The translations under genes and the position numbers were made by a program. DNA of 30,856 nucleotides from a virus. Shown in pieces: positions 1-30,856 of this stretch. Every line of letters starts with the position of its first letter. Positions within the stretch are counted from its first letter, which is position 1. The stretch is from positions 1 to 30,856 of IMG/VR virus record IMGVR_UViG_3300045988_111723. One strand, 5' to 3'. The notes beneath the pieces are model-generated. The model was not told the origin of the DNA. It made no database searches and saw nothing but the letters and a program-made list of their open reading frames with translations.

Positions 1-23
1 AGGTTCGACTCCTGCTGGCGCAA
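1..23 (+). repeat. attL core, resembling a tRNA 3' end (T-loop TTCGACT, T-stem CCTGC, acceptor TGGCGCA, discriminator A)
   Basis: aggttcgactcctgctggcgcaa is identical to 30834-30856. The GGTTCGAnTCC-type T-arm motif is present. The body of the tRNA would lie upstream of the window. Confidence 0.8.
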
Positions 24-4483: not shown

Positions 4484-4607
4484 TGCCCTGCGCCTCCTTG
4501 TCCAGCTCGGCTTGTACGCGGGCCCGCCAGCGGGTCGGGACGTCGTCAATGGTGAAGGTGCCTTCGAACTGGTGGAGCTTGATTTGGGTAACATAAAAAT
4601 CGATCAT
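4476..4607 (-). CDS. XkdX-like small phage protein (43 aa, below the ORF-track cutoff)
   Basis: Hand translation gives MIDFYVTQIKLHQFEGTFTIDDVPTRWRARVQAELDKEAQGNG. There is a GAGGAGG RBS. It overlaps the endolysin start by 8 nt. Position between fibre and lysis genes matches PBSX xkdX. Confidence 0.55.
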   Translation of the reverse strand: MIDFYVTQIKLHQFEGTFTIDDVPTRWRARVQAELDKEAQGNG

Positions 4608-4610
4608 ATT

Positions 4611-5036
4611 TTAGCCCTCCTCTGTGGCATATGCGGCCAGCAGGTCGCGCATGGCGGATTCTAGTGCGGCAAGCCGGGTCTCGGTGTTCGGCAGCTTTGC
4701 TTGCTGCTCTGCCTTTTCGCGGGCAGCGGCCTGTTCGGCCAGCTCCTCTTCCGTATACAGGATGTACCGCTGTACCTCCACCTCTTCGTCGTAGGCTTCC
4801 TGTGCGGCCACACCGGGCACGTCCACCACCTTGCGGACATCACGGCCTTTTTCACGACCATCTGCGTCATAGTAGATTGCAGGGGTCCCGTCCGGCAAGG
4901 TTTCGGTCTCGTAGTGGCTGACCTCTTCCACCGCTTCCACAGCATCGTGGTGGATGGTCTGGGTTTCCTGCTTGAGGTAGCCTTTTGTCAGGTCGGGGTT
5001 TTCAATCGGGATGCCGTGTTCGTCAATGATTTGCAT
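4611..5036 (-). CDS. Hypothetical tail-fibre-adjacent protein
   Basis: 141-aa acidic ORF with an AAAGAGGTGA RBS, immediately downstream of the fibre locus. Confidence 0.7.
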   Translation of the reverse strand: MQIIDEHGIPIENPDLTKGYLKQETQTIHHDAVEAVEEVSHYETETLPDGTPAIYYDADGREKGRDVRKVVDVPGVAAQEAYDEEVEVQRYILYTEEELAEQAAAREKAEQQAKLPNTETRLAALESAMRDLLAAYATEEG

Positions 5037-5069
5037 ATTGGTTCACCTCTTTCATGTTGTTTTGATTTC

Positions 5070-5117
5070 CCTCCCATCCTGCCGGGTCCACCGCCGAGGC
5101 GGGGCTGCCGAATGTGA
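5070..5117. repeat. Left 48-bp inverted repeat of the invertible tail-fibre segment
   Basis: Base-by-base reverse complement of 5579-5626 with no mismatch. Confidence 0.95.
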
Positions 5118-5356
5118 GCGGAGAAGTTTCTTTTGACAGCAATAGCGCGCTTATACGTGACACAAGTGTATTCAGTGGATGCTTTATGGCTGGCAAATCT
5201 AAATTTGCCAATACTCTAGGAGGTTTTGGCTTTAATGACTCAAAACCCGGACGTCCTTTGGCATTCGATGCTTCCCGTTCCAACTCCATCTACGGTAAGT
5301 CTTCCACTGTCCAGCCCCCGGCCTACTATGCGTACATCTGGCACAGAATCGAGTGA
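5114..5356 (+). other. Silent alternative tail-fibre C-terminal cassette (promoterless, no RBS/ATG; frame opens inside the left IR)
   Basis: Encodes ...SNSIYGKSSTVQPPAYYAYIWHRIE, homologous to the expressed fibre end SSSIYGKSSTVQPPAYYVNIWKRVV. The frame continues upstream through the IR as SHPAGSTAEAGLPNV. Confidence 0.8.
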
Positions 5357-5357
5357 G

Positions 5358-6734
5358 TCATACCACCCGCTTCCATATGTTGACGTAGTATGCAGGCGGC
5401 TGTACGGTTGAGCTTTTTCCGTAAATGCTTGAAGATAGTGAAGCATTGAAGCTGAAAGACCCAATTTTCACGTAATAATCATTTCCGTAAGGCAGGCGAC
5501 TGTCACTTAAATCTGTTACTCTTAATGCACCGTCTCCGGAAGGCCTTTGGGTATACCAAAAATTGCGAACGTTTCCCGTCACATTCGGCAGCCCCGCCTC
5601 GGCGGTGGACCCGGCAGGATGGGAGGTGCTGGCGCCCATCAGGGCCTGGTCTTCTGCAATTTTCTCCCACGTCCCGCCGAACATCTCTGCCGGGCTGGTG
5701 GGATCATTGCTGACCCAGAATTTGATTTTTGCGTATTCTTTCTCACGATAGGCAGCAAGGCTGTCCTCAATCAGCTTTTGGATTTCCTTTTTGGTGTACC
5801 TCACCGCCAGCTCATCACCCACCTGCTTTGCATCCGCCGGAGCATCGGGAATGCTCAGAGTCTTGTCCGTCCCCGCCTTGGCCCCGGCTTCCTCAGAGTA
5901 CTTCTTGGCGGCTTCCTCATGTTTGGCCGCGTTGCTCTCCGACGTCGCCGCTGCCGTTTTGGACTTTTCTGCCGCGCTGGCCGAACCGGATGCTTCCGTG
6001 GCACTTCCCGCCGCAGCGCTCTGGCTCCGGGCGGCTGCGGCGGCGGAATTGGCAGAGGCAGAGGCGCTGCCCGCAGCTTTGCTCTCCGACGTCGCCGCTG
6101 CCTCCTTGTAGGCCTTGGCATTAACCTCCGACTGTGCTGCTGCGGTCTTGCTGGCATTGGCCTCTTTGGCGGCGGCGCTGGCCGTCTCTTCCAGCGCGTT
6201 GATGTGCTCCCGTGCGGAGGCCAGCAGCTCCTCCGTCGGGATGCCCGTCACGCCGTCCCGCATGACGCCGCAGAGGGCGGGGTCCAGCCGGGTGTCGATG
6301 ATGTTGCCCGCGACGATGGTGGTGGAGCCAGCAGGGCGGGTGATCTGGGCGAGGCACAGGTCGTACAGCAGCGCCGTGCGGGAGATGTCCGGTGCGGTGG
6401 GCTGGGTGTCGGGGGTGCCCTGCAGCACCAGCAGGGAGGACTTGCGGGCCGCTGCGTCGTAGCGCAGCACGATGCGGTCGATGCGGGGGCGCTGGCCGTC
6501 CGCAAGGGCGAGGGTCAGGGTCTCGGCCTCCCGCAGGATGACGCTGTAGCCCTCGAATCGGGCCGGGTGAATCCAGCCCACACCGGCGCTGACGGTCACG
6601 GACAAGCCGCCCGCCGCCGTGACCGCGAAATCCTCCTCGCTGCTGTACACGCCCGACGTGCGGGTGGCGGTGTACCCGGCAGCGTCGCGGGCGTCGTAGT
6701 CGATGCCGTTGAGGGGGTAAGTAGTAATAGCCAA
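5358..6734 (-). CDS. Tail fibre / receptor-binding protein (Ala/Ser-rich coiled stalk, tail-collar-like C-terminus)
   Basis: 458 aa. TTG start with GGAGG 8 nt upstream. C-terminal pattern FGGTWEKIAEDQALMGA...VQPPAYY. Position is after Dit and the Gp37-like gene. Confidence 0.9.
   Translation of the reverse strand: MAITTYPLNGIDYDARDAAGYTATRTSGVYSSEEDFAVTAAGGLSVTVSAGVGWIHPARFEGYSVILREAETLTLALADGQRPRIDRIVLRYDAAARKSSLLVLQGTPDTQPTAPDISRTALLYDLCLAQITRPAGSTTIVAGNIIDTRLDPALCGVMRDGVTGIPTEELLASAREHINALEETASAAAKEANASKTAAAQSEVNAKAYKEAAATSESKAAGSASASANSAAAAARSQSAAAGSATEASGSASAAEKSKTAAATSESNAAKHEEAAKKYSEEAGAKAGTDKTLSIPDAPADAKQVGDELAVRYTKKEIQKLIEDSLAAYREKEYAKIKFWVSNDPTSPAEMFGGTWEKIAEDQALMGASTSHPAGSTAEAGLPNVTGNVRNFWYTQRPSGDGALRVTDLSDSRLPYGNDYYVKIGSFSFNASLSSSIYGKSSTVQPPAYYVNIWKRVV
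5579..5626. repeat. Right 48-bp inverted repeat (inside the expressed fibre gene)
   Basis: Perfect reverse complement of 5070-5117. Confidence 0.95.
5932..6102. repeat. 24-bp direct repeat 147 bp apart inside the fibre stalk
   Basis: ttgctctccgacgtcgccgctgcc at 5932-5955 and 6079-6102, in frame (49 codons apart). Confidence 0.85.
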
Positions 6735-19838: not shown

Positions 19839-20496
19839 TTATTGTTTGCTCCACTGTTCGGCCATCGCTTTTGCAATTCCGGGGAATGTTTTCGCTCGAT
19901 TTTTGGCACGGTCAGTGGTAAACATGCCTTTATGCTGCTCTCCATGTTTGTGAGAGTAAGATCCGGATGGGCACCACGTTGCAATGGGTTCAACAACGTC
20001 TGTTGATTGTAGCGGCTCAAGCTCTTTCAGCCAAAGGCAGGTTTTCTTTGTGTACGGATGCCCGAATTGGTACGGTTGGATGGTCTGCGTATATTCAGGC
20101 ATACAGAACACTTTGCTAGGTACTGGATTCTCTATGCAAATTTTCGGAATGTCTGCCCACCAAAATCGCATGAACAAATCTCTGCCTTGAATCCCAAGCA
20201 TCACACGGTCAGCTTGCAACTCGTGATTTTTCCACAGGTGACGTGCGCCAGCGTTAGATAGATAGGTACAAGGCGGATGAGCAATGAGCAGATCCCAGTT
20301 TCCAATTTCGTGCTCTACGCCATCCATTGTCACGATTCCCCCCCCCCTCAAGAACTTTCAGCGCATCGCCCAGAATGTGCCATTCAGGGTGTCCGCCGGA
20401 TGGCTCCTGAATATCGCAGGAATAGGCTTCGTGACCTCTCGCACGAAACGCTTTGCACACTTCCTGTGATTCTTCGCAAGCAACAAGCACTCTCAT
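19839..20496 (-). pseudogene. Phage cytosine-5 DNA methyltransferase-like gene interrupted at a G10 tract
   Basis: The N-terminal ORF (MRVLVACEESQEV...) and the C-terminal ORF (..DLLIAHPPCTYLS..CIENPVP..TFPGIAKAMAEQW) are offset by one base at 20338-20347. Confidence 0.75.
20338..20347 (-). repeat. Homopolymer G10 (C10 on plus strand)
   Basis: Counted directly. G9 or G12 would fuse the two methyltransferase ORFs. Confidence 0.95.
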
Positions 20497-20511: not shown

Positions 20512-21618
20512 TTATTTCAAAACAAAATATCTTACAAGTTCAGCTATCACGCTGATTTTCGGAATCCATCCGCAAGTAAAAAATTTGCCGTCCTGCAAAA
20601 TGATTGCGTAATCGTCGTAATTCATGATTCCGGCATGTTGGCGGTTTTGATCTATTCGTTTCCAAAACATTGCCCCGCCGGGAAGAGATTGTTTGTAATA
20701 TTCAAGCCCAAACTGTACATCTTCCCACGCCAGTTCCCACAGCACAGTTTCTTTTATCGTTTTTTCGGCCAGCATATGCAGCGTCTTCTTTCCGCGCTGC
20801 TGTTCTTCCTGCTTCTGTGCCGCTTCCCGGTGCGCCTTTTCTACGGCTGCCCGGCACTCCGGTGGAAGGTTCCACTCGTCAAAATCGGGGTTTTCCGGTA
20901 TCGTTTCCGCCGCTTTTGGCGGGCAGTCAAAAACAACAGGTTTCTCGTACACCGCTTTCCCCGGTTTGGGCGGCTCCACAGGCGGCTTTTTGGCTTCGAT
21001 GATTTCCTGCGCCCGCTTATAGGCCGCCATGAGGGAGATTTCCCCGGCCCGCAGTTCCCGCTTGGTATCATCCCCGCAGTTTTCCGCAATGGCATTCAGC
21101 CGGGCCACTGCACCCGCACTCAGGCCGAGGATTCTGCACAGCTCATCCCGCACCTTGCCTTCGAGCTGGCCGTTTTTCTTCCGGCGCGTCAGAATCTCCT
21201 TGAGGGCCTCATACTGTGCCAGACGTTCGCCGTCGGTCAACTCGCGAGCGGTGGCGTTGGCCGTGATGAGCGCGATCTTGTCGTCATCGTCCTGCTTGAG
21301 CCGGAGAATGACGCAGGGCAGCGCGTTGAATCGGGTATCGCCCTCTTTGGCCAGCTCCTCGCAAGCGGTCAAACGCCGTTCGCCGCCGATCAGCTTGTAA
21401 TCGCCATTCTCCAGATCGACCACTTCCAGCGGCTGCCGGATGCCATGAATCCGGATGTCCTCCTTGAGCCGGGAGACATCGCCGATGACGTAGATTTTGC
21501 GGTTGTCCGGGTTGACGATGATGTTTTTGCGGTCGATCATGACCACTTTCAGCGGCGGCTCCCCCGCCGGGGTGGACGGCTGGGCGTCCAAAAGGCTGTG
21601 TAATAATCCGGTGTTCAT
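20512..21618 (-). CDS. parB: ParB N-terminal-domain protein with an uncharacterised C-terminal extension
   Basis: IRQPLEVV...KLIGGERRLTACEEL motif. The start overlaps the parA stop (ATGA). Confidence 0.85.
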   Translation of the reverse strand: MNTGLLHSLLDAQPSTPAGEPPLKVVMIDRKNIIVNPDNRKIYVIGDVSRLKEDIRIHGIRQPLEVVDLENGDYKLIGGERRLTACEELAKEGDTRFNALPCVILRLKQDDDDKIALITANATARELTDGERLAQYEALKEILTRRKKNGQLEGKVRDELCRILGLSAGAVARLNAIAENCGDDTKRELRAGEISLMAAYKRAQEIIEAKKPPVEPPKPGKAVYEKPVVFDCPPKAAETIPENPDFDEWNLPPECRAAVEKAHREAAQKQEEQQRGKKTLHMLAEKTIKETVLWELAWEDVQFGLEYYKQSLPGGAMFWKRIDQNRQHAGIMNYDDYAIILQDGKFFTCGWIPKISVIAELVRYFVLK

Positions 21619-22415
21619 TTTTGTCCCTCCGCGATCTCCATCACTCTCTCCGCCAGCGTCCGATACTGCGCGGCGGGCTTGCATTTCGGCGCGTACTGGT
21701 ACAGAGGCCGGTGAGACGCCTTAGACTCCTTCACCCTCACGCTGCTGTCGATGTGCAGCACCGACCCATCAGCGGCCCGGAAGGTCGGGATGTCCAGACC
21801 AACGAGCTGGTTGATGGTCTTGGTGGAGTAGCGGCCCCGGTCGTACTTGGTGGCCAGCGTGCCCATGATCTCCAGACCCTCGTTGTACTCGGCCTTGACG
21901 TCCCTGATCTGCGTCATGATCTCGTCCAGCCCATCCAGCGCCCACTCGTCGCAGTCCACCGGGATGATGACCCAATCGGCGGCAACCAGCGCGTTGATGG
22001 TGGCCATGTCGATATCGGGCGGGCAGTCGAGAATGCAATAGTCGTACTCGCTGCGGTAGGGGTAGAGCGCCCGCCGGATGCGGTCTTCCCGCCGCCGGGC
22101 CAGATCAAACATCACGCTCTGGTTGGCGAGCAGCAACTGCATATTGCTGGGCGCGAGGTCGATGTCATCCCAGTCGGTGTGTACGATGACCTCGCTGAGC
22201 TTTGCGTCCAGCGTCAGCACGTCGGCGATGGTCTTCTGGTGTCCACTCTGGACACGTTCGAAGAATTTTGTGGTGTTCGCTTGCTTGTCCAGATCCATGA
22301 CCAGCACCCGCTGGGCGTAGATGCCGGACAGGATACAGGCCAGATTACAGGCGGTGACGGACTTGCCAACGCCGCCCTTGAGGTTGATGATCGCGATGGT
22401 AGCCATGTTTCTCAT
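21615..22415 (-). CDS. parA: ParA-family partition ATPase
   Basis: Deviant Walker A IAIINLKGGVGKS. 266 aa. GAGGAG RBS. Confidence 0.92.
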   Translation of the reverse strand: MRNMATIAIINLKGGVGKSVTACNLACILSGIYAQRVLVMDLDKQANTTKFFERVQSGHQKTIADVLTLDAKLSEVIVHTDWDDIDLAPSNMQLLLANQSVMFDLARRREDRIRRALYPYRSEYDYCILDCPPDIDMATINALVAADWVIIPVDCDEWALDGLDEIMTQIRDVKAEYNEGLEIMGTLATKYDRGRYSTKTINQLVGLDIPTFRAADGSVLHIDSSVRVKESKASHRPLYQYAPKCKPAAQYRTLAERVMEIAEGQK

Positions 22416-23358: not shown

Positions 23359-23811
23359 TTAAAACGGCAGATCGTCATCATCGGAGATCACCGCAAAGTC
23401 GTCCGCGCTGCCTTGCGAGTAAGCGGGAGCAGGTTCCCGGTAGTCCTTGGGCGGTGCTTCGCCGCCGTCGTCCACGGGCTGCCCGCCGGGCTTCTTAGGC
23501 CCCGCAAAATTGATCTGTCGCGCCACCACTTCCACCGCAGTGCGGTTGTTTCCGTTTTTGTCCTGATACTGGCGGCTTTGCAGGGAGCCTTCCACGGCAA
23601 CAAGACTGCCTTTCTGGAAGTACTTCGTCACGAACTCCGCCGACTGCCGCCACGCGACGACGTCGATAAAGTCCGCTTGCTGTTCCTGCCCCTGCTGGAC
23701 GAAATTCCGGTCGCACGCGATGCGGAAGCTGCACACATTGGTACCGTTCCCGGTGGTGCGCAGTTCCGGGTCTGCGACGAGCCGCCCCATAATTGCCACT
23801 ACATTGAGCAT
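23359..23811 (-). CDS. ssb: Single-stranded DNA-binding protein
   Basis: OB-fold pattern MLNVVAIMGRLVADPELR..., acidic tail DDDDLPF. Confidence 0.95.
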   Translation of the reverse strand: MLNVVAIMGRLVADPELRTTGNGTNVCSFRIACDRNFVQQGQEQQADFIDVVAWRQSAEFVTKYFQKGSLVAVEGSLQSRQYQDKNGNNRTAVEVVARQINFAGPKKPGGQPVDDGGEAPPKDYREPAPAYSQGSADDFAVISDDDDLPF

Positions 23812-24092
23812 TTCAGATAATCCTTTCCGGTTTCTTCCATCCAGCGGTCGTGCCCATACAACGCCTCAAAATCCCGCTGGGCCTGTTTCTTCAGGTCGAG
23901 CCGGAGGTGGTGGTCGAAATGGGCACTGTACCCCGGCTCGTTGTGGTGGCGGTGGCACAGCCAGACCTTCAGGCCGTACCGCTCCGCCATGGGCCGCAGC
24001 GGGCCGTTCAGCACATGGTGCTCTTCCAGCCCGGCCACCGTGGCCACGTTGTACTTCATCCGGCAGACGTAACACTCCCGCCGGGTCTGCAT
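23799..24092 (-). CDS. HNH-motif / zinc-finger protein (putative nuclease)
   Basis: CYVC...LEEHHVL...WLCHRHHN. Start chosen at 24092; the ORF track starts at a TTG at 24137. Confidence 0.55.
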   Translation of the reverse strand: MQTRRECYVCRMKYNVATVAGLEEHHVLNGPLRPMAERYGLKVWLCHRHHNEPGYSAHFDHHLRLDLKKQAQRDFEALYGHDRWMEETGKDYLKCSM

Positions 24093-24103
24093 GATGGACG
24101 CGC

Positions 24104-24661
24104 TCACTTTCTCGGCACCTCCTGCCATTCCTGCCAATATTGGGTTACATTCGGATCGTTGACGCCCATTTCGGCCAGCCGGTCGAAAATGCCGTCAATA
24201 AAGGCCGACATCTGGGCGCTGGTAAAGCTGCTGGAACCCATCGACGCCTTGACAGTGCAGCGGTCGTTGTCCAGCAGCTCCACAATATGCACAAGCCTGT
24301 AAGCATTGCGCAGGATGGGCACGGCGGCCACCGGAAGCTCCAGAAAGTCATATTCGAGGCCGTATTCTTCCAGCATCTCGATATAACAGTCTTCCGGGGT
24401 GGTGCCGCCCGCCTTTCCGGCGTTGTAGTGGTCGGCCATGATGGTGAGCAGCGCCCACATCATGCGGTTCTGCTCCAGACTGCGCTTTTTCCGCTGCCGC
24501 TCCACGGTAATGGTCAGCCGCAGCGGGGAGCCGTGGGCGAGGTCGTCTAATTTTTGGCGTATCTGCGTTTTAACAAATTCCGCCGAGTTTTCCACAATGA
24601 TTTTTTTCCTTGTGGGGTCGTAGACGACCGGGAGCTTGCCGATCACGTCGTTTCGGGCCAT
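24104..24661 (-). CDS. NinB/Orf-like recombination-associated protein
   Basis: KRSLEQNRMMWALL motif, typical of the NinB / HNHc_6 N-terminal region. 185 aa. Confidence 0.6.
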   Translation of the reverse strand: MARNDVIGKLPVVYDPTRKKIIVENSAEFVKTQIRQKLDDLAHGSPLRLTITVERQRKKRSLEQNRMMWALLTIMADHYNAGKAGGTTPEDCYIEMLEEYGLEYDFLELPVAAVPILRNAYRLVHIVELLDNDRCTVKASMGSSSFTSAQMSAFIDGIFDRLAEMGVNDPNVTQYWQEWQEVPRK

Positions 24662-25254
24662 AGGATTTTATTGCCCTCCGTTGTGGCGAACTGCACCATG
24701 GTGATCCTGCCGGTGTCGTCCCGCGCGAAGCGATCCACCCGGAGCGAAGTGCCGAGCATCCAGCGCTTCTTGTCTGCGCTCTCCACAATGGGCATCTGTG
24801 CAGTGGCCTTGAGCAGCAGCTTGCCGACATCCAGCACGTCCGCCCCGGCACCCCAGAGCGCCGCAGCGGCCAGAAAGCTCGTGATCTCCTGCATCTTTGC
24901 CGGGTTATTGGCCGGAATGGACATGGCCGCAGCATCCTTGTAGACGTACTCGCCGGTATCGGGCGAGTAAACGCCGACTTGGCACCAGAGCTGACTCCCG
25001 GCATAATACCGGCGCATACACCAGCCCGCCGGGCCGTAGGCGTCATCCAGCAGCTTGCGTACCGCAGCATCATCCGGGAGCAGCATCACGCGAGCCGCGT
25101 CCTTGTCTACCGCCAAAGTGATAACGTGACAGCCTTCCGGGGCCGTCTGCGCGGGCTTTGGCACGTTGACCGGGAACTTTACCGGCTCGACCGAAACGCC
25201 GCCAGAAACGCCCGCAGACGGCGCCCGCCGCCGGGAAGTGTTTTTAGTCGGCAT
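24643..25254 (-). CDS. Rad52/Sak-like single-strand annealing protein (putative)
   Basis: LLDDAYGPAGWCMRRYY...VGVY...YKDAAA...AAALWGAGADV pattern. Start at 25254 with a GAGGA RBS. Confidence 0.6.
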   Translation of the reverse strand: MPTKNTSRRRAPSAGVSGGVSVEPVKFPVNVPKPAQTAPEGCHVITLAVDKDAARVMLLPDDAAVRKLLDDAYGPAGWCMRRYYAGSQLWCQVGVYSPDTGEYVYKDAAAMSIPANNPAKMQEITSFLAAAALWGAGADVLDVGKLLLKATAQMPIVESADKKRWMLGTSLRVDRFARDDTGRITMVQFATTEGNKILWPETT

Positions 25255-25489
25255 CGTGGATATCCTCATAGTAAGCGTCATCGCGGGTTTTTTCGGCTTC
25301 GATATCGTCTTGGCCGCTATAGGTCGAGTCACTAACGTCACGTTCGAGCAGCTCACGGCAATAGGTCAACCCGTCGCGAGCTTCCTGCACAGTTACGGGC
25401 TGCTTGACGTTTCGCAGCGCCCAAAGCAGCATCGCCGCAACTTTTTTGGTGGTCTCATTGTATTCGCATTTCTTGTCACAGTCGCACAT
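25244..25489 (-). CDS. Hypothetical acidic protein (81 aa)
   Basis: ORF with an AAAGGAAAGG RBS in the early operon. Confidence 0.6.
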   Translation of the reverse strand: MCDCDKKCEYNETTKKVAAMLLWALRNVKQPVTVQEARDGLTYCRELLERDVSDSTYSGQDDIEAEKTRDDAYYEDIHDAD

Positions 25490-29051: not shown

Positions 29052-29654
29052 ATGAACGAATATGATAAACGAATCGCCAAAGCTCTGGAAATGGCGCGGT
29101 CAAAGGCAGGAATCAGTCAAGAAAGGCTTGCCAAGCGGATGGGCGTAAGCCGCCCGACCATTGCGGGCAGAGAGCAAGGGGCATCCCCTGTCACGCTGGC
29201 CGATATTATCGATTGGTGCGTTTCGTGCGGCGTCCCGGCAAAGCGGTACACGGACGCCTGTATCCATCCGGGCCTGTTGGAGTATCTGGAGGACGACATC
29301 ACCACCGAGGAAAAGCGCCAGATACTGCACACCGTTGTGGATGAGATGTCCAACTATGAGGTGGACGGCTGGTTGTACCTCTACTATGGGAATCATGGGT
29401 CTGACCCTCTGGGCGTCCTGACTGAGGTGCTTGCGAACTTGCACACGCCTCTGCGTGACCGCGTGACCATTGTCAACGCGATCATCGGCCATTACCGGAT
29501 GGCCCGCTCGACGGACACAGACCCAGACCCCAACGGGATACAGCCGGTCATGCCGATCGTGCAGCAAGCAAGTGACTGCGGCACCGAGGCAGCCCGCCGG
29601 GGCGATGATGCCTATTCTGTGAGGGAGGTGGATAGAGATGCCGAGAAAAAGTAA
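29052..29654 (+). CDS. XRE-family HTH regulator with an uncharacterised C-terminal domain of about 130 aa
   Basis: ISQERLAKRMGVSRPTIAGREQG is an HTH motif. GGGGGCGGG RBS. The stop overlaps the integrase start. Confidence 0.85.
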   Translation: MNEYDKRIAKALEMARSKAGISQERLAKRMGVSRPTIAGREQGASPVTLADIIDWCVSCGVPAKRYTDACIHPGLLEYLEDDITTEEKRQILHTVVDEMSNYEVDGWLYLYYGNHGSDPLGVLTEVLANLHTPLRDRVTIVNAIIGHYRMARSTDTDPDPNGIQPVMPIVQQASDCGTEAARRGDDAYSVREVDRDAEKK

Positions 29655-30777
29655 AGGGATGCGCCCAGATGGGCGCTGTCAGATCAAGCGAAAGATGCCG
29701 GATGGAAAATACCGGTTTTTTTACGGGAAAACAAAATCTGAAGCAGAGGCAAAATACAAAGAAGCACTAATCCAAAAAGCGGAGGCCGAAAGTAAGGCAG
29801 AGCTTTTTGAAATTGTTGCTGCTGATTATTGGGACAAGCTGCTCAAACGCATAAAAGACGGGACAGATTCAACATATAGGTCTAACTATGACCGTTGCGT
29901 CCAATTTTTTTCGGGCAAACGGATGGATGAAATTACGCCGGTCATGATCGTAAGTTTTGGGCAGTCTCTCAAAGATGAGGGGTTATCAACAAGCACGATT
30001 CAAAACGCAGTCAGCATATTGCGAGGGATTTTCAGGGGCTGGCGGCTTGCAAGCGGATCATCTTACAATCCGATGCAGGATATCAAGTCCCCCGCCGGGA
30101 AACCGGCTGTCATACGCGAGCCGCCGACAGACCGGGAACTCGCATTGTTTCGGGCCCACCCGGAAGGATTTGGGCTATGTGCATGGATGTTGATGTATAC
30201 AGGGTGCCGTTTGGGCGAGCTGATCGCACTCAGATGGGACGATATCGATTTTGAGACCAACAAAATATATATCAACAAAAAAGTATCATGGGCGGGTGGC
30301 GGCACCAGAATCCAATCGCCCAAAACAGCCAACGGCGTGCGCGTCGTGCCGCTTATGCCGAAACTCAAGCGGCAAATAGAACCCCGCAAGGGGACTCCGT
30401 TGGAGTATGTTATAGGAGGCCTGACAAGGCCGCTGACAGATGCAGAATATCACAGCCGGTGGCTTGCGTATTGCACGGAGCTGGGACTTGTTCAGCCGAG
30501 TGAGAGTAAGACAAGATACAGAGATAGCCGCCGAGGCCCAAAAGCGGCTAAAAATCCATTGCCGCCTGTAATGGAGCCCACCGTTACGGCTCACCAGTTC
30601 CGGCACTCGTTCGCGTCGGACTTATACGATGCCGGTGTTGGAGTGCTGGAGGCAAAAAAGATCATGGGTCACGCGGACATTTCGACAACATACAAAATAT
30701 ACACTCATATCCGAGAGCGCAAGCTAAAAGATGCCACCGAAAAGATGATTAAATTTTATGATGACGAGGATAAATAA
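29638..30777 (+). CDS. int: Tyrosine integrase
   Basis: C-terminal catalytic pattern RLGELIALRW...HQFRHSFASDL...MGHADISTTYKIYTH. Adjacent to attR. Confidence 0.95.
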   Translation: MPRKSKGMRPDGRCQIKRKMPDGKYRFFYGKTKSEAEAKYKEALIQKAEAESKAELFEIVAADYWDKLLKRIKDGTDSTYRSNYDRCVQFFSGKRMDEITPVMIVSFGQSLKDEGLSTSTIQNAVSILRGIFRGWRLASGSSYNPMQDIKSPAGKPAVIREPPTDRELALFRAHPEGFGLCAWMLMYTGCRLGELIALRWDDIDFETNKIYINKKVSWAGGGTRIQSPKTANGVRVVPLMPKLKRQIEPRKGTPLEYVIGGLTRPLTDAEYHSRWLAYCTELGLVQPSESKTRYRDSRRGPKAAKNPLPPVMEPTVTAHQFRHSFASDLYDAGVGVLEAKKIMGHADISTTYKIYTHIRERKLKDATEKMIKFYDDEDK

Positions 30778-30797
30778 AAGTAGTCAAGAAGTAGTCA
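30778..30797 (+). promoter_or_regulatory. Putative integrase arm-type sites, AAGTAGTCA x2 spaced 11 bp (P arm)
   Basis: AAGTAGTCA at 30778-30786 and 30789-30797, mirroring 142-161. Confidence 0.5.
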
Positions 30798-30833: not shown

Positions 30834-30856
30834 AGGTTCGACTCCTGCTGGCGCAA
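30834..30856 (+). repeat. attR core (tRNA 3'-end copy)
   Basis: Identical to positions 1-23. Confidence 0.8.

Follow-up and report, generated by a model that had tools for sequence, protein, structure and literature searches.

The tail-fibre gene of a prophage of 30,856 nucleotides (IMG/VR record IMGVR_UViG_3300045988_111723, positions 1 to 30,856; "the window" below means this whole stretch) ends in a module that is very probably a two-state inversion switch. A perfect 48-bp inverted repeat encloses two convergent cassettes that encode alternative tips of the fibre; one (V1) is currently joined to the fibre gene and the other (V2) is silent. The reading of this module as an invertible segment that lacks a linked invertase and would swap the 73-79 C-terminal residues of the fibre is indirectly but strongly supported by the comparison with related phages, in which both orientations are found, and the copy in the window probably still flips. 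The source of the window is a temperate Faecalibacterium siphovirus integrated in tRNA-Gln.

Two fibre tips between the arms of an inverted repeat

Positions 5070-5117 of the window are the exact reverse complement of positions 5579-5626 (48/48), as the initial annotation of this DNA had claimed, and a repeat finder extends the inverted repeat to 59 nt at 93% identity (5070-5128 and 5568-5626). A search of the window for its 18-nt core, allowing up to 3 mismatches, found no other copy (0.06 expected by chance), and a chance origin of the inverted repeat is excluded. The module consists of the following features, with lengths in amino acids (aa):

5358..6734, minus strand: tail-fibre (receptor-binding protein) gene, 458 aa, whose constant part is residues 1-385
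5579..5626, minus strand: proximal arm, inside the expressed fibre gene, encoding SHPAGSTAEAGLPNV
5070..5117, plus strand: distal arm, heading the silent cassette, with the in-frame reading (P)SHPAGSTAEAGLPNV
5118..5578, 461 bp: invertible segment, with two convergent tip cassettes, tail to tail
5358..5578, minus strand: V1, the currently expressed tip cassette, 73 aa and a stop, the fibre C-terminus
5118..5356, plus strand: V2, the silent tip cassette, 79 aa and a stop, start-less and intact

These coordinates and translations agree with the initial annotation, which had placed one arm in the fibre gene and the other in the same frame and had described a V1 of 73 aa and a start-less V2 of 79 aa with nearly abutting stops. 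The stop codons are 1 nt apart (V2 TGA at 5354-5356, fibre stop at 5358-5360). An in-frame TGA (5063-5065) lies two codons upstream of the distal arm, and V2 has no credible start codon. The interior of the segment has a G+C content of 46%, against 56% for the window, consistent with horizontal exchange of tips. Both cassettes end in the shared C-terminal motif IYGKSSTVQPPAYY (IYGKSSTVQPPAYYxxIWxR), and the different codon usage that the initial annotation had noticed there provides an internal control: only 5 of the 18 same-residue codons of the motif are identical, compared with 15/15 in the arms, so that the nucleotide identity of the arms exceeds what the protein requires. The 461-bp segment contains only the two tip cassettes, with no tail-fibre assembly genes of the U/U' type in it. 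Nor does the module resemble a diversity-generating retroelement: no reverse-transcriptase match was obtained, the two repeat copies are inverted and do not differ at any base, and the cassettes are not related to each other beyond their framework motifs.

The fibre gene starts with TTG, 8 nt after AGGAGG, follows the tape-measure, Dit-like and Sipho_Gp37 (Tal) genes and matches PHROG tail-fibre families. Its close relatives share the sequence HPAG(S/T)TxEAGLPN(I/V), followed by 70-90 hypervariable residues and then IYGxSxTVQPPAYxxYIWRR. The tip domain begins about 45 residues upstream of the arm. With Pfam Gp10_C the V1 and V2 tips score 21.8-23.1 bits, short of the curated threshold of 27, which relatives exceed. 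Among annotated phage proteins the closest is the "putative antireceptor" of Lactobacillus phage Ld3, with 29% identity. In an alignment of the tip family V2 retains all 19 invariant residues, and its closest database relative is only about 50% identical. An AlphaFold monomer model of the tip had low confidence (pLDDT, the predicted local distance difference test, 64.6) and gave no meaningful Foldseek match in the PDB; a PDB sequence search with the tip came back empty. From the position of the gene, its family matches and its hypervariability we infer that the fibre C-terminus is a receptor-binding tip, and the two tips would presumably bind different receptors. Elsewhere in the gene, the Ala/Ser-rich middle of the fibre carries a 30-nt direct repeat (5926-5955 and 6073-6102), and relatives show insertions and deletions there; the fibre of relative P0004 is 19 aa shorter at this place.

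Both orientations occur in related phages

At least 15 distinct contigs, from three or four phage lineages, share this arrangement of two cassettes within an inverted repeat, and all 15 related contigs, like the window, have two cassettes and one repeat pair. The initial annotation had proposed that homologous prophages be compared for both orientations, and both were found, for three different cassette pairs. The first pair belongs to the same lineage as the window: L045 expresses the tip beginning SGNVHN and silences the one beginning TGSITE, and L046 and L047 have the reverse arrangement. The interiors of L045 and L046/L047 are identical at 441 of 449 positions when compared as reverse complements but only 54% identical in the same orientation, and the 600 nt past the distal arm are 100% identical. 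In the second pair, L065, L071 and L144 express TGSLY and silence RGTFAG, and L100 and L239 show the opposite state; the flanks are colinear with 93-94% identity, and the interiors between them match at 95.8-99.3% in inverted orientation. For the third pair, both states are present in the comparison of L079 and L173 with L220.

A second lineage (L049, L065, L071, L079, L100 and the circular contig IMGVR_UViG_3300045988_056142) has the same layout with another arm sequence and another fibre body. It was found by an IMG/VR search with an alignment of tips, and L144, L173, L220, L231 and L239 were added by a metagenome scan. Contig 056142 (L134, 1-260; L135, 11780-12147) is 31.6 kb long and its ends join seamlessly inside the silent cassette, so it represents a circularly permuted complete genome cut within the module. 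Other searches yielded little: an IMG/VR scan for the window-type arm gave 0 matches, a scan of a genome collection with the fibre gave only 3 distant loci, and a loose inverted-repeat pattern run on metagenome contigs produced mostly chance matches, with cassettes in only 5 of 120. Two short contigs, L002 and L003, stop in V2 or the arm, which might suggest a mixture of orientations; this was dismissed, as assembly continues across the proximal junction and the contigs do not stop at the outer boundary of the arm.

A different arrangement was seen in L053, L055, L074, L081, L082, L086, L094, L103, L114, L118 and L125 (~4500-5800), where two tip-type genes stand in tandem on the same strand. 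Such pairs would be an alternative to switching in which both tips are expressed.

No recombinase accompanies the module

Pfam, PHROG and NCBIfam scans of the roughly 45 open reading frames (ORFs) between the attachment (att) sites of the prophage found one recombinase only, and no Resolvase-family match:

29638..30777, plus strand: tyrosine integrase (Pfam Phage_integrase, 2.9e-19; PHROG_1, 8e-62), with SAM-like N-terminal domains

This gene lies at the far prophage end and does not adjoin the tip cassettes. As tblastn searches with Hin and Gin also left the window without a match, and the family scans covered the complete prophage, the absence of a linked invertase holds for the whole phage. 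The same had been noted in the initial annotation, which named the integrase as the only recombinase and its att core as unrelated to the repeat; family scans, tblastn and repeat comparison all concur. The surroundings of the modules of relatives were probed by tblastn with Hin, Gin, XerC and the window integrase (in L050, L065, L079 and L100 with Hin, Gin and the integrase only). A serine recombinase was absent within 5-10 kb of the module in every inverton-bearing locus searched, and the single match near any relative's module came from L129, in which a distantly related tyrosine recombinase gene lies at a distance of 6.7 kb. ORFs of 176-183 aa, the size of an invertase, stand beside the module in L049, L065 and L079; they have no Pfam match, run antisense to a conserved downstream gene and were discarded as candidates.

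The arms themselves do not look like a known crossover site. They are GC-rich, unlike the 26-bp gix/cix/hix-type sites with A/T-rich half-sites and a 2-bp core. The dyad CCGCC-GA-GGCGG, which the initial annotation had put forward as a possible crossover site, is present, yet at least as good a dyad arises in 41% of synonymous recodings of the peptide, and the proposal does not stand.

How the segment might be inverted

In the switch that we propose, the fibre gene is constant up to SHPAGSTAEAGLPNV, encoded by one arm of the 48-bp repeat, and the other arm heads the promoter-less and start-less V2, tail to tail with V1. Recombination between the arms would invert the 461-bp segment, fusing residues 1-385 in frame to V2 and silencing V1. 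It would change the distal part of the Gp10_C-like adsorption domain, with an expected effect on host range. Strand exchange would depend on homology and could use host RecA-type recombination, phage recombination functions or template switching during replication; the arms would be kept identical by gene conversion, with no dedicated recombinase site. This full statement, tip switch and homology-dependent catalyst together, is one that we put forward tentatively; between the two candidate catalysts, we lean with like reserve to homology-dependent recombination over a host invertase acting in trans.

Several observations argue for homology. Within each genome the codons of the arms are identical, 15/15 in the window and 14/14 in each of L045, L049 and L079, compared with 5-6 of 18 in the equally conserved C-terminal motif. 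Between lineages the arms differ at many synonymous sites, their extent ranges from 21 to 48 nt and their boundaries vary. Some changes are carried in both arms, GAG to AAG in L065, L071, L144 and L239 and GCT to GCC in L100. The silent cassette of L173 (6541-7110) is a mosaic, of L065 type from inside the arm to the IYG...QPPAYY motif and from there on 100% of L050 type, and is thus a cassette replacement through recombination at short conserved stretches; with one breakpoint inside the arm and another in the short C-terminal motif, it shows that recombination at short homologies does act at this locus. The lack of significance of the dyad points the same way, and the phage encodes a NinB/Orf-like recombination mediator and an SSB.

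Other observations weigh against our proposal. RecA-type systems are inefficient across 42-48 bp, and perfectly identical coding repeats occur also in systems that carry a recombinase. To our knowledge, all experimentally characterised tail-fibre inversion switches use a site-specific recombinase (Mu Gin, P1 Cin, p15B Min); the bifidophage Rin is a predicted further case. The flipped L046 has arms with only an 18-nt perfect core, and the repeat of L231 is only 21 nt long, which fits a short recombinase site better. The initial annotation's claim that inversion swaps the fibre tip is upheld by the relatives but not yet by this phage, for which a single orientation is on record: the four public copies do not differ from one another and all express V1, and the flipped form was not found. 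The protein that joins the fibre to V2 is absent among 5.8 billion proteins, whether queried as fibre plus V2 or as V2 only, and both cluster members of the fibre protein (P0001) are V1 forms, the only form in databases. A clonal pair differing by the inversion alone was not found either, and the rate of inversion could be very low.

A broader version of the idea, which we offer as a conjecture of some promise, is that no dedicated recombinase is involved at all. Gut phages might vary the fibre tip by general homology-dependent recombination across gene-converted arms of about 45 bp, maybe with the help of phage functions, and the framework motifs would serve as landing pads for cassette swaps between phages.

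We do not expect, but take seriously, that the same tip switch is flipped in trans by a site-specific invertase whose gene lies at another place in the Faecalibacterium chromosome, with a crossover site within the 48-bp arms. Bacteroides fragilis Mpi and Clostridioides difficile RecV are comparable cases of action in trans. Programmed inversions are as a rule the work of site-specific recombinases, and not every invertible region has a recombinase nearby (PMC9881135); Mavrich et al. proposed the same for an inversion of about 500 bp in the tail genes of bifidobacterial prophages (PMC6109161). The short perfect core of L046, which is centred in the arm, the 21-nt repeat of L231 and the stereotyped layout across lineages all speak for this reading. 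However, no nucleotide core is common to all instances, given the many synonymous differences between arms, and the dyad is not significant. The both-arm changes and the identity over the whole homologous stretch need gene conversion in any case, and a mobile phage that relied on a host enzyme would be expected to lose the switch in hosts without it.

Upkeep and loss of silent cassettes

It is improbable that the silent cassette and the repeat are a relic of past recombination between phages or of an inverted duplication, with no useful rate of inversion now. The orientations seen in relatives would then be rare ancient events, or the product of module exchange between co-infecting phages. The initial annotation had named a related test, whether V2 is a decaying remnant in close relatives, and part of what was found agrees with decay. 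In L048 (7420-7650) the silent cassette has an internal deletion and a frameshift, and an arm is truncated, so this is a decayed copy of the module; the arms of L050 are degenerate; and the silent cassette is absent from the close relatives P0007, P0010, P0013 and P0015 and from phage FP_Lugh. The single orientation of this phage's four public copies, the lack of a close relative of V2 anywhere and the 4-7% divergence of the flanks in opposite-orientation pairs, by which the events need not be recent, would suit a relic as well.

On the other side, the arms of the window are perfect while its C-terminal motif has drifted at synonymous sites, V2 is intact with all invariant family residues kept, and both states exist for three independent cassette pairs. 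Moreover, the silent cassettes are intact and evolve under purifying selection: for the RGTFAG-type cassette the ratio of nonsynonymous to synonymous change (pN/pS) is 0.20-0.34 at a pS of 0.36-0.72, comparisons of silent with silent copies included. Copies of this cassette in the silent position (L071, L144) and in the expressed one (L239) show 100% identity.

That the prophage's own tyrosine integrase also inverts the segment has very little to commend it. It is the sole recombinase in the prophage, there is the tyrosine recombinase some 6.7 kb from the module in L129, and HK022 Int can, by literature precedent, invert DNA between att-like sites. Yet the 23-bp att core shares with the arm only a partial likeness (8/10), which we estimate to be within chance, and the AAGTAGTCA arm-type repeats stand beside the att cores only, with none at the inversion module. 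The integrases of two lineages are barely related (19.7% identity) and the arms differ, and no tyrosine recombinase was detected in 23 kb of the circular relative 056142. On these comparisons the integrase is an unlikely inversion catalyst. We give hardly any credence to the idea that the orientation differences are assembly artefacts, which could arise where an assembler's k-mer is no longer than the perfect repeat and both orientations satisfy the graph: the SPAdes and MEGAHIT assemblies involved ended with a k (k119-k127 by the contig names) that exceeds the repeat length of 18-48 nt, L046/L047 have a perfect repeat of only 18 nt and two independent L046 assemblies (ENA, Logan) agree on the orientation, all of which makes an artefact unlikely, and both states of the three cassette pairs recur in many independent samples.

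Relation to known inversion systems

The module shares its design with the Mu G, P1 C and p15B Min segments, inverted by Din-family serine invertases. In all of them the constant N-terminal part of the fibre lies outside the segment and the alternative C-terminal cassettes inside, and the repeat falls within the coding sequence, so that inversion splices a new tip in frame and a change of host range is expected. Unlike those systems, the module has no Gin/Cin/Hin-type gene adjacent to it or anywhere in the prophage, its arms are GC-rich and not gix/hix-like, no U/U'-type assembly gene is co-inverted in a segment that comprises just 461 bp and two tail-to-tail cassettes, and it belongs to a siphovirus whose host is a gut anaerobe of Gram-positive type. 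In shufflons (R64 Rci; bifidophage Rin), too, cassette inversion alters the C-terminal end of an adhesin or receptor-binding protein, but several cassettes are separated by sites of 11-19 bp and a dedicated tyrosine invertase is encoded next to them. The present module has two cassettes with long arms rather than three or more with short repeats, and no dedicated tyrosine invertase stands beside them. In Streptococcus pneumoniae the spnIII/ivr hsdS genes invert across repeats of tens of bp and the dedicated recombinase is reportedly not strictly needed, inversion persisting after deletion of the nearby recombinase; this possible likeness concerns another gene class, and the locus does contain a recombinase gene.

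The nearest precedent is the inversion in the bifidobacterial prophages 689b-1 and Bb423phi2, and invertase-less inversion in phages has thus been noted before. Mavrich et al. (2018) described a tail-gene segment of about 500 bp that is inverted between these relatives and comprises a small gene and the 3' end of a neighbouring structural gene, both without assigned functions, with an 8-bp repeat, CAGGGTTA; it lacks a flanking recombinase, and they suggested that an invertase acts on it in trans (PMC6109161). The size of the segment, the tail-gene target, the occurrence among related prophages and the lack of a flanking recombinase are the same as here. The present module differs in its perfectly homogenised arms of 42-48 bp, in a recognisable fibre with a Gp10_C-like tip, and in the documentation of three cassette pairs in both states and of selection on silent cassettes.

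In a survey of bacterial genomes, Milman et al. (2023) found tail fibres among the classes enriched for gene-altering inversions, with some regions lacking a nearby recombinase (PMC9881135). As in those inversions, the repeats of our module lie in two convergent coding sequences of the same family, one of them 5'-truncated up to the repeat, the target is a tail fibre and the orientation varies among relatives. In the surveyed genomes a recombinase is usually nearby, whereas here a phage lineage has none. The module has two features of an orphan inverton, with both orientations among close relatives (though not in the window's own phage) and no recombinase in or beside the segment. A literature search found no prior description of it in Faecalibacterium phages.

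Prophage and genome context

The remaining features that bear on the module are:

1..23 and 30834..30856, both plus strand: att core (attL/attR pair), a 23-bp direct repeat, AGGTTCGACTCCTGCTGGCGCAA, equal to the 3' end of tRNA-Gln
4611..5036, minus strand: conserved 141-aa gene, just past the distal arm
23359-25356, minus strand: SSB, NinB/Orf-like recombination mediator (phrog_72, 7e-16) and an adjacent 237-aa protein (phrog_14970)

A longer contig, L001, is 100% identical to the window and shows AGGTTCGACTCCTGCTGGCGCAA to be the tRNA-Gln 3' end, with host genes beyond; with the same sequence at both ends, the window is therefore a complete att-to-att prophage. Paired AAGTAGTCA repeats beside both att cores (142-161 and 30778-30797) are probably the arm sites of the integrase. 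The gene order is terminase, portal, protease, capsid, tail, tape measure, Dit-like, Sipho_Gp37 (Tal-like), fibre, the conserved 141-aa gene, GH25 lysin and holins, and Faecalibacterium phage FP_Lugh has a similar fibre with similar neighbours.

The 141-aa gene gave no match in the Pfam, PHROG and NCBIfam scans of the window's ORFs. It was considered as a new recombinase. L137 and FP_Lugh do not have the inversion module but carry a counterpart at this position, 78% and 45% identical respectively; the gene, being kept in phages without the module, is ruled out as its invertase. The 237-aa protein beside the NinB/Orf-like mediator might be a single-strand annealing protein.

Two further observations concern other parts of the prophage. 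Partition genes, ParB-like and ParA (AAA_31), are present at 20512-21684 and 21615-22415 (minus strand), alongside the integrase and the integration in a tRNA gene. Two ORFs, 20254-20496 and 19839-20351 (within 19839-20496, minus strand), overlap by about 100 nt, and neither has a Pfam match; they look like a single cytosine-methyltransferase-like gene (motif AHPPCTYLS) broken by a frameshift.

Discussion

Faecalibacterium is among the most abundant, health-associated bacteria of the gut, and its phages are little studied. What appears to be new here is a minimal tail-fibre tip switch that lacks a recombinase and recurs in several gut phage lineages. With such a switch a temperate phage would be able to spread its risk over receptor variants, and the switch would therefore affect strain-level phage-host dynamics and the reading of host-range predictions made from metagenomes. 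With 461 bp, two cassettes and no helper genes, and with its presence in several lineages, the compact module is an easy target for read-based orientation counts in gut datasets.

If the segment does flip without a site-specific recombinase, switches that resemble phase variation could arise from short homologous arms alone, and a host-range switch that looks programmed would come from sequence homology only. Inverton finders would then have a broader target, and "orphan" invertons need not imply an undiscovered invertase.

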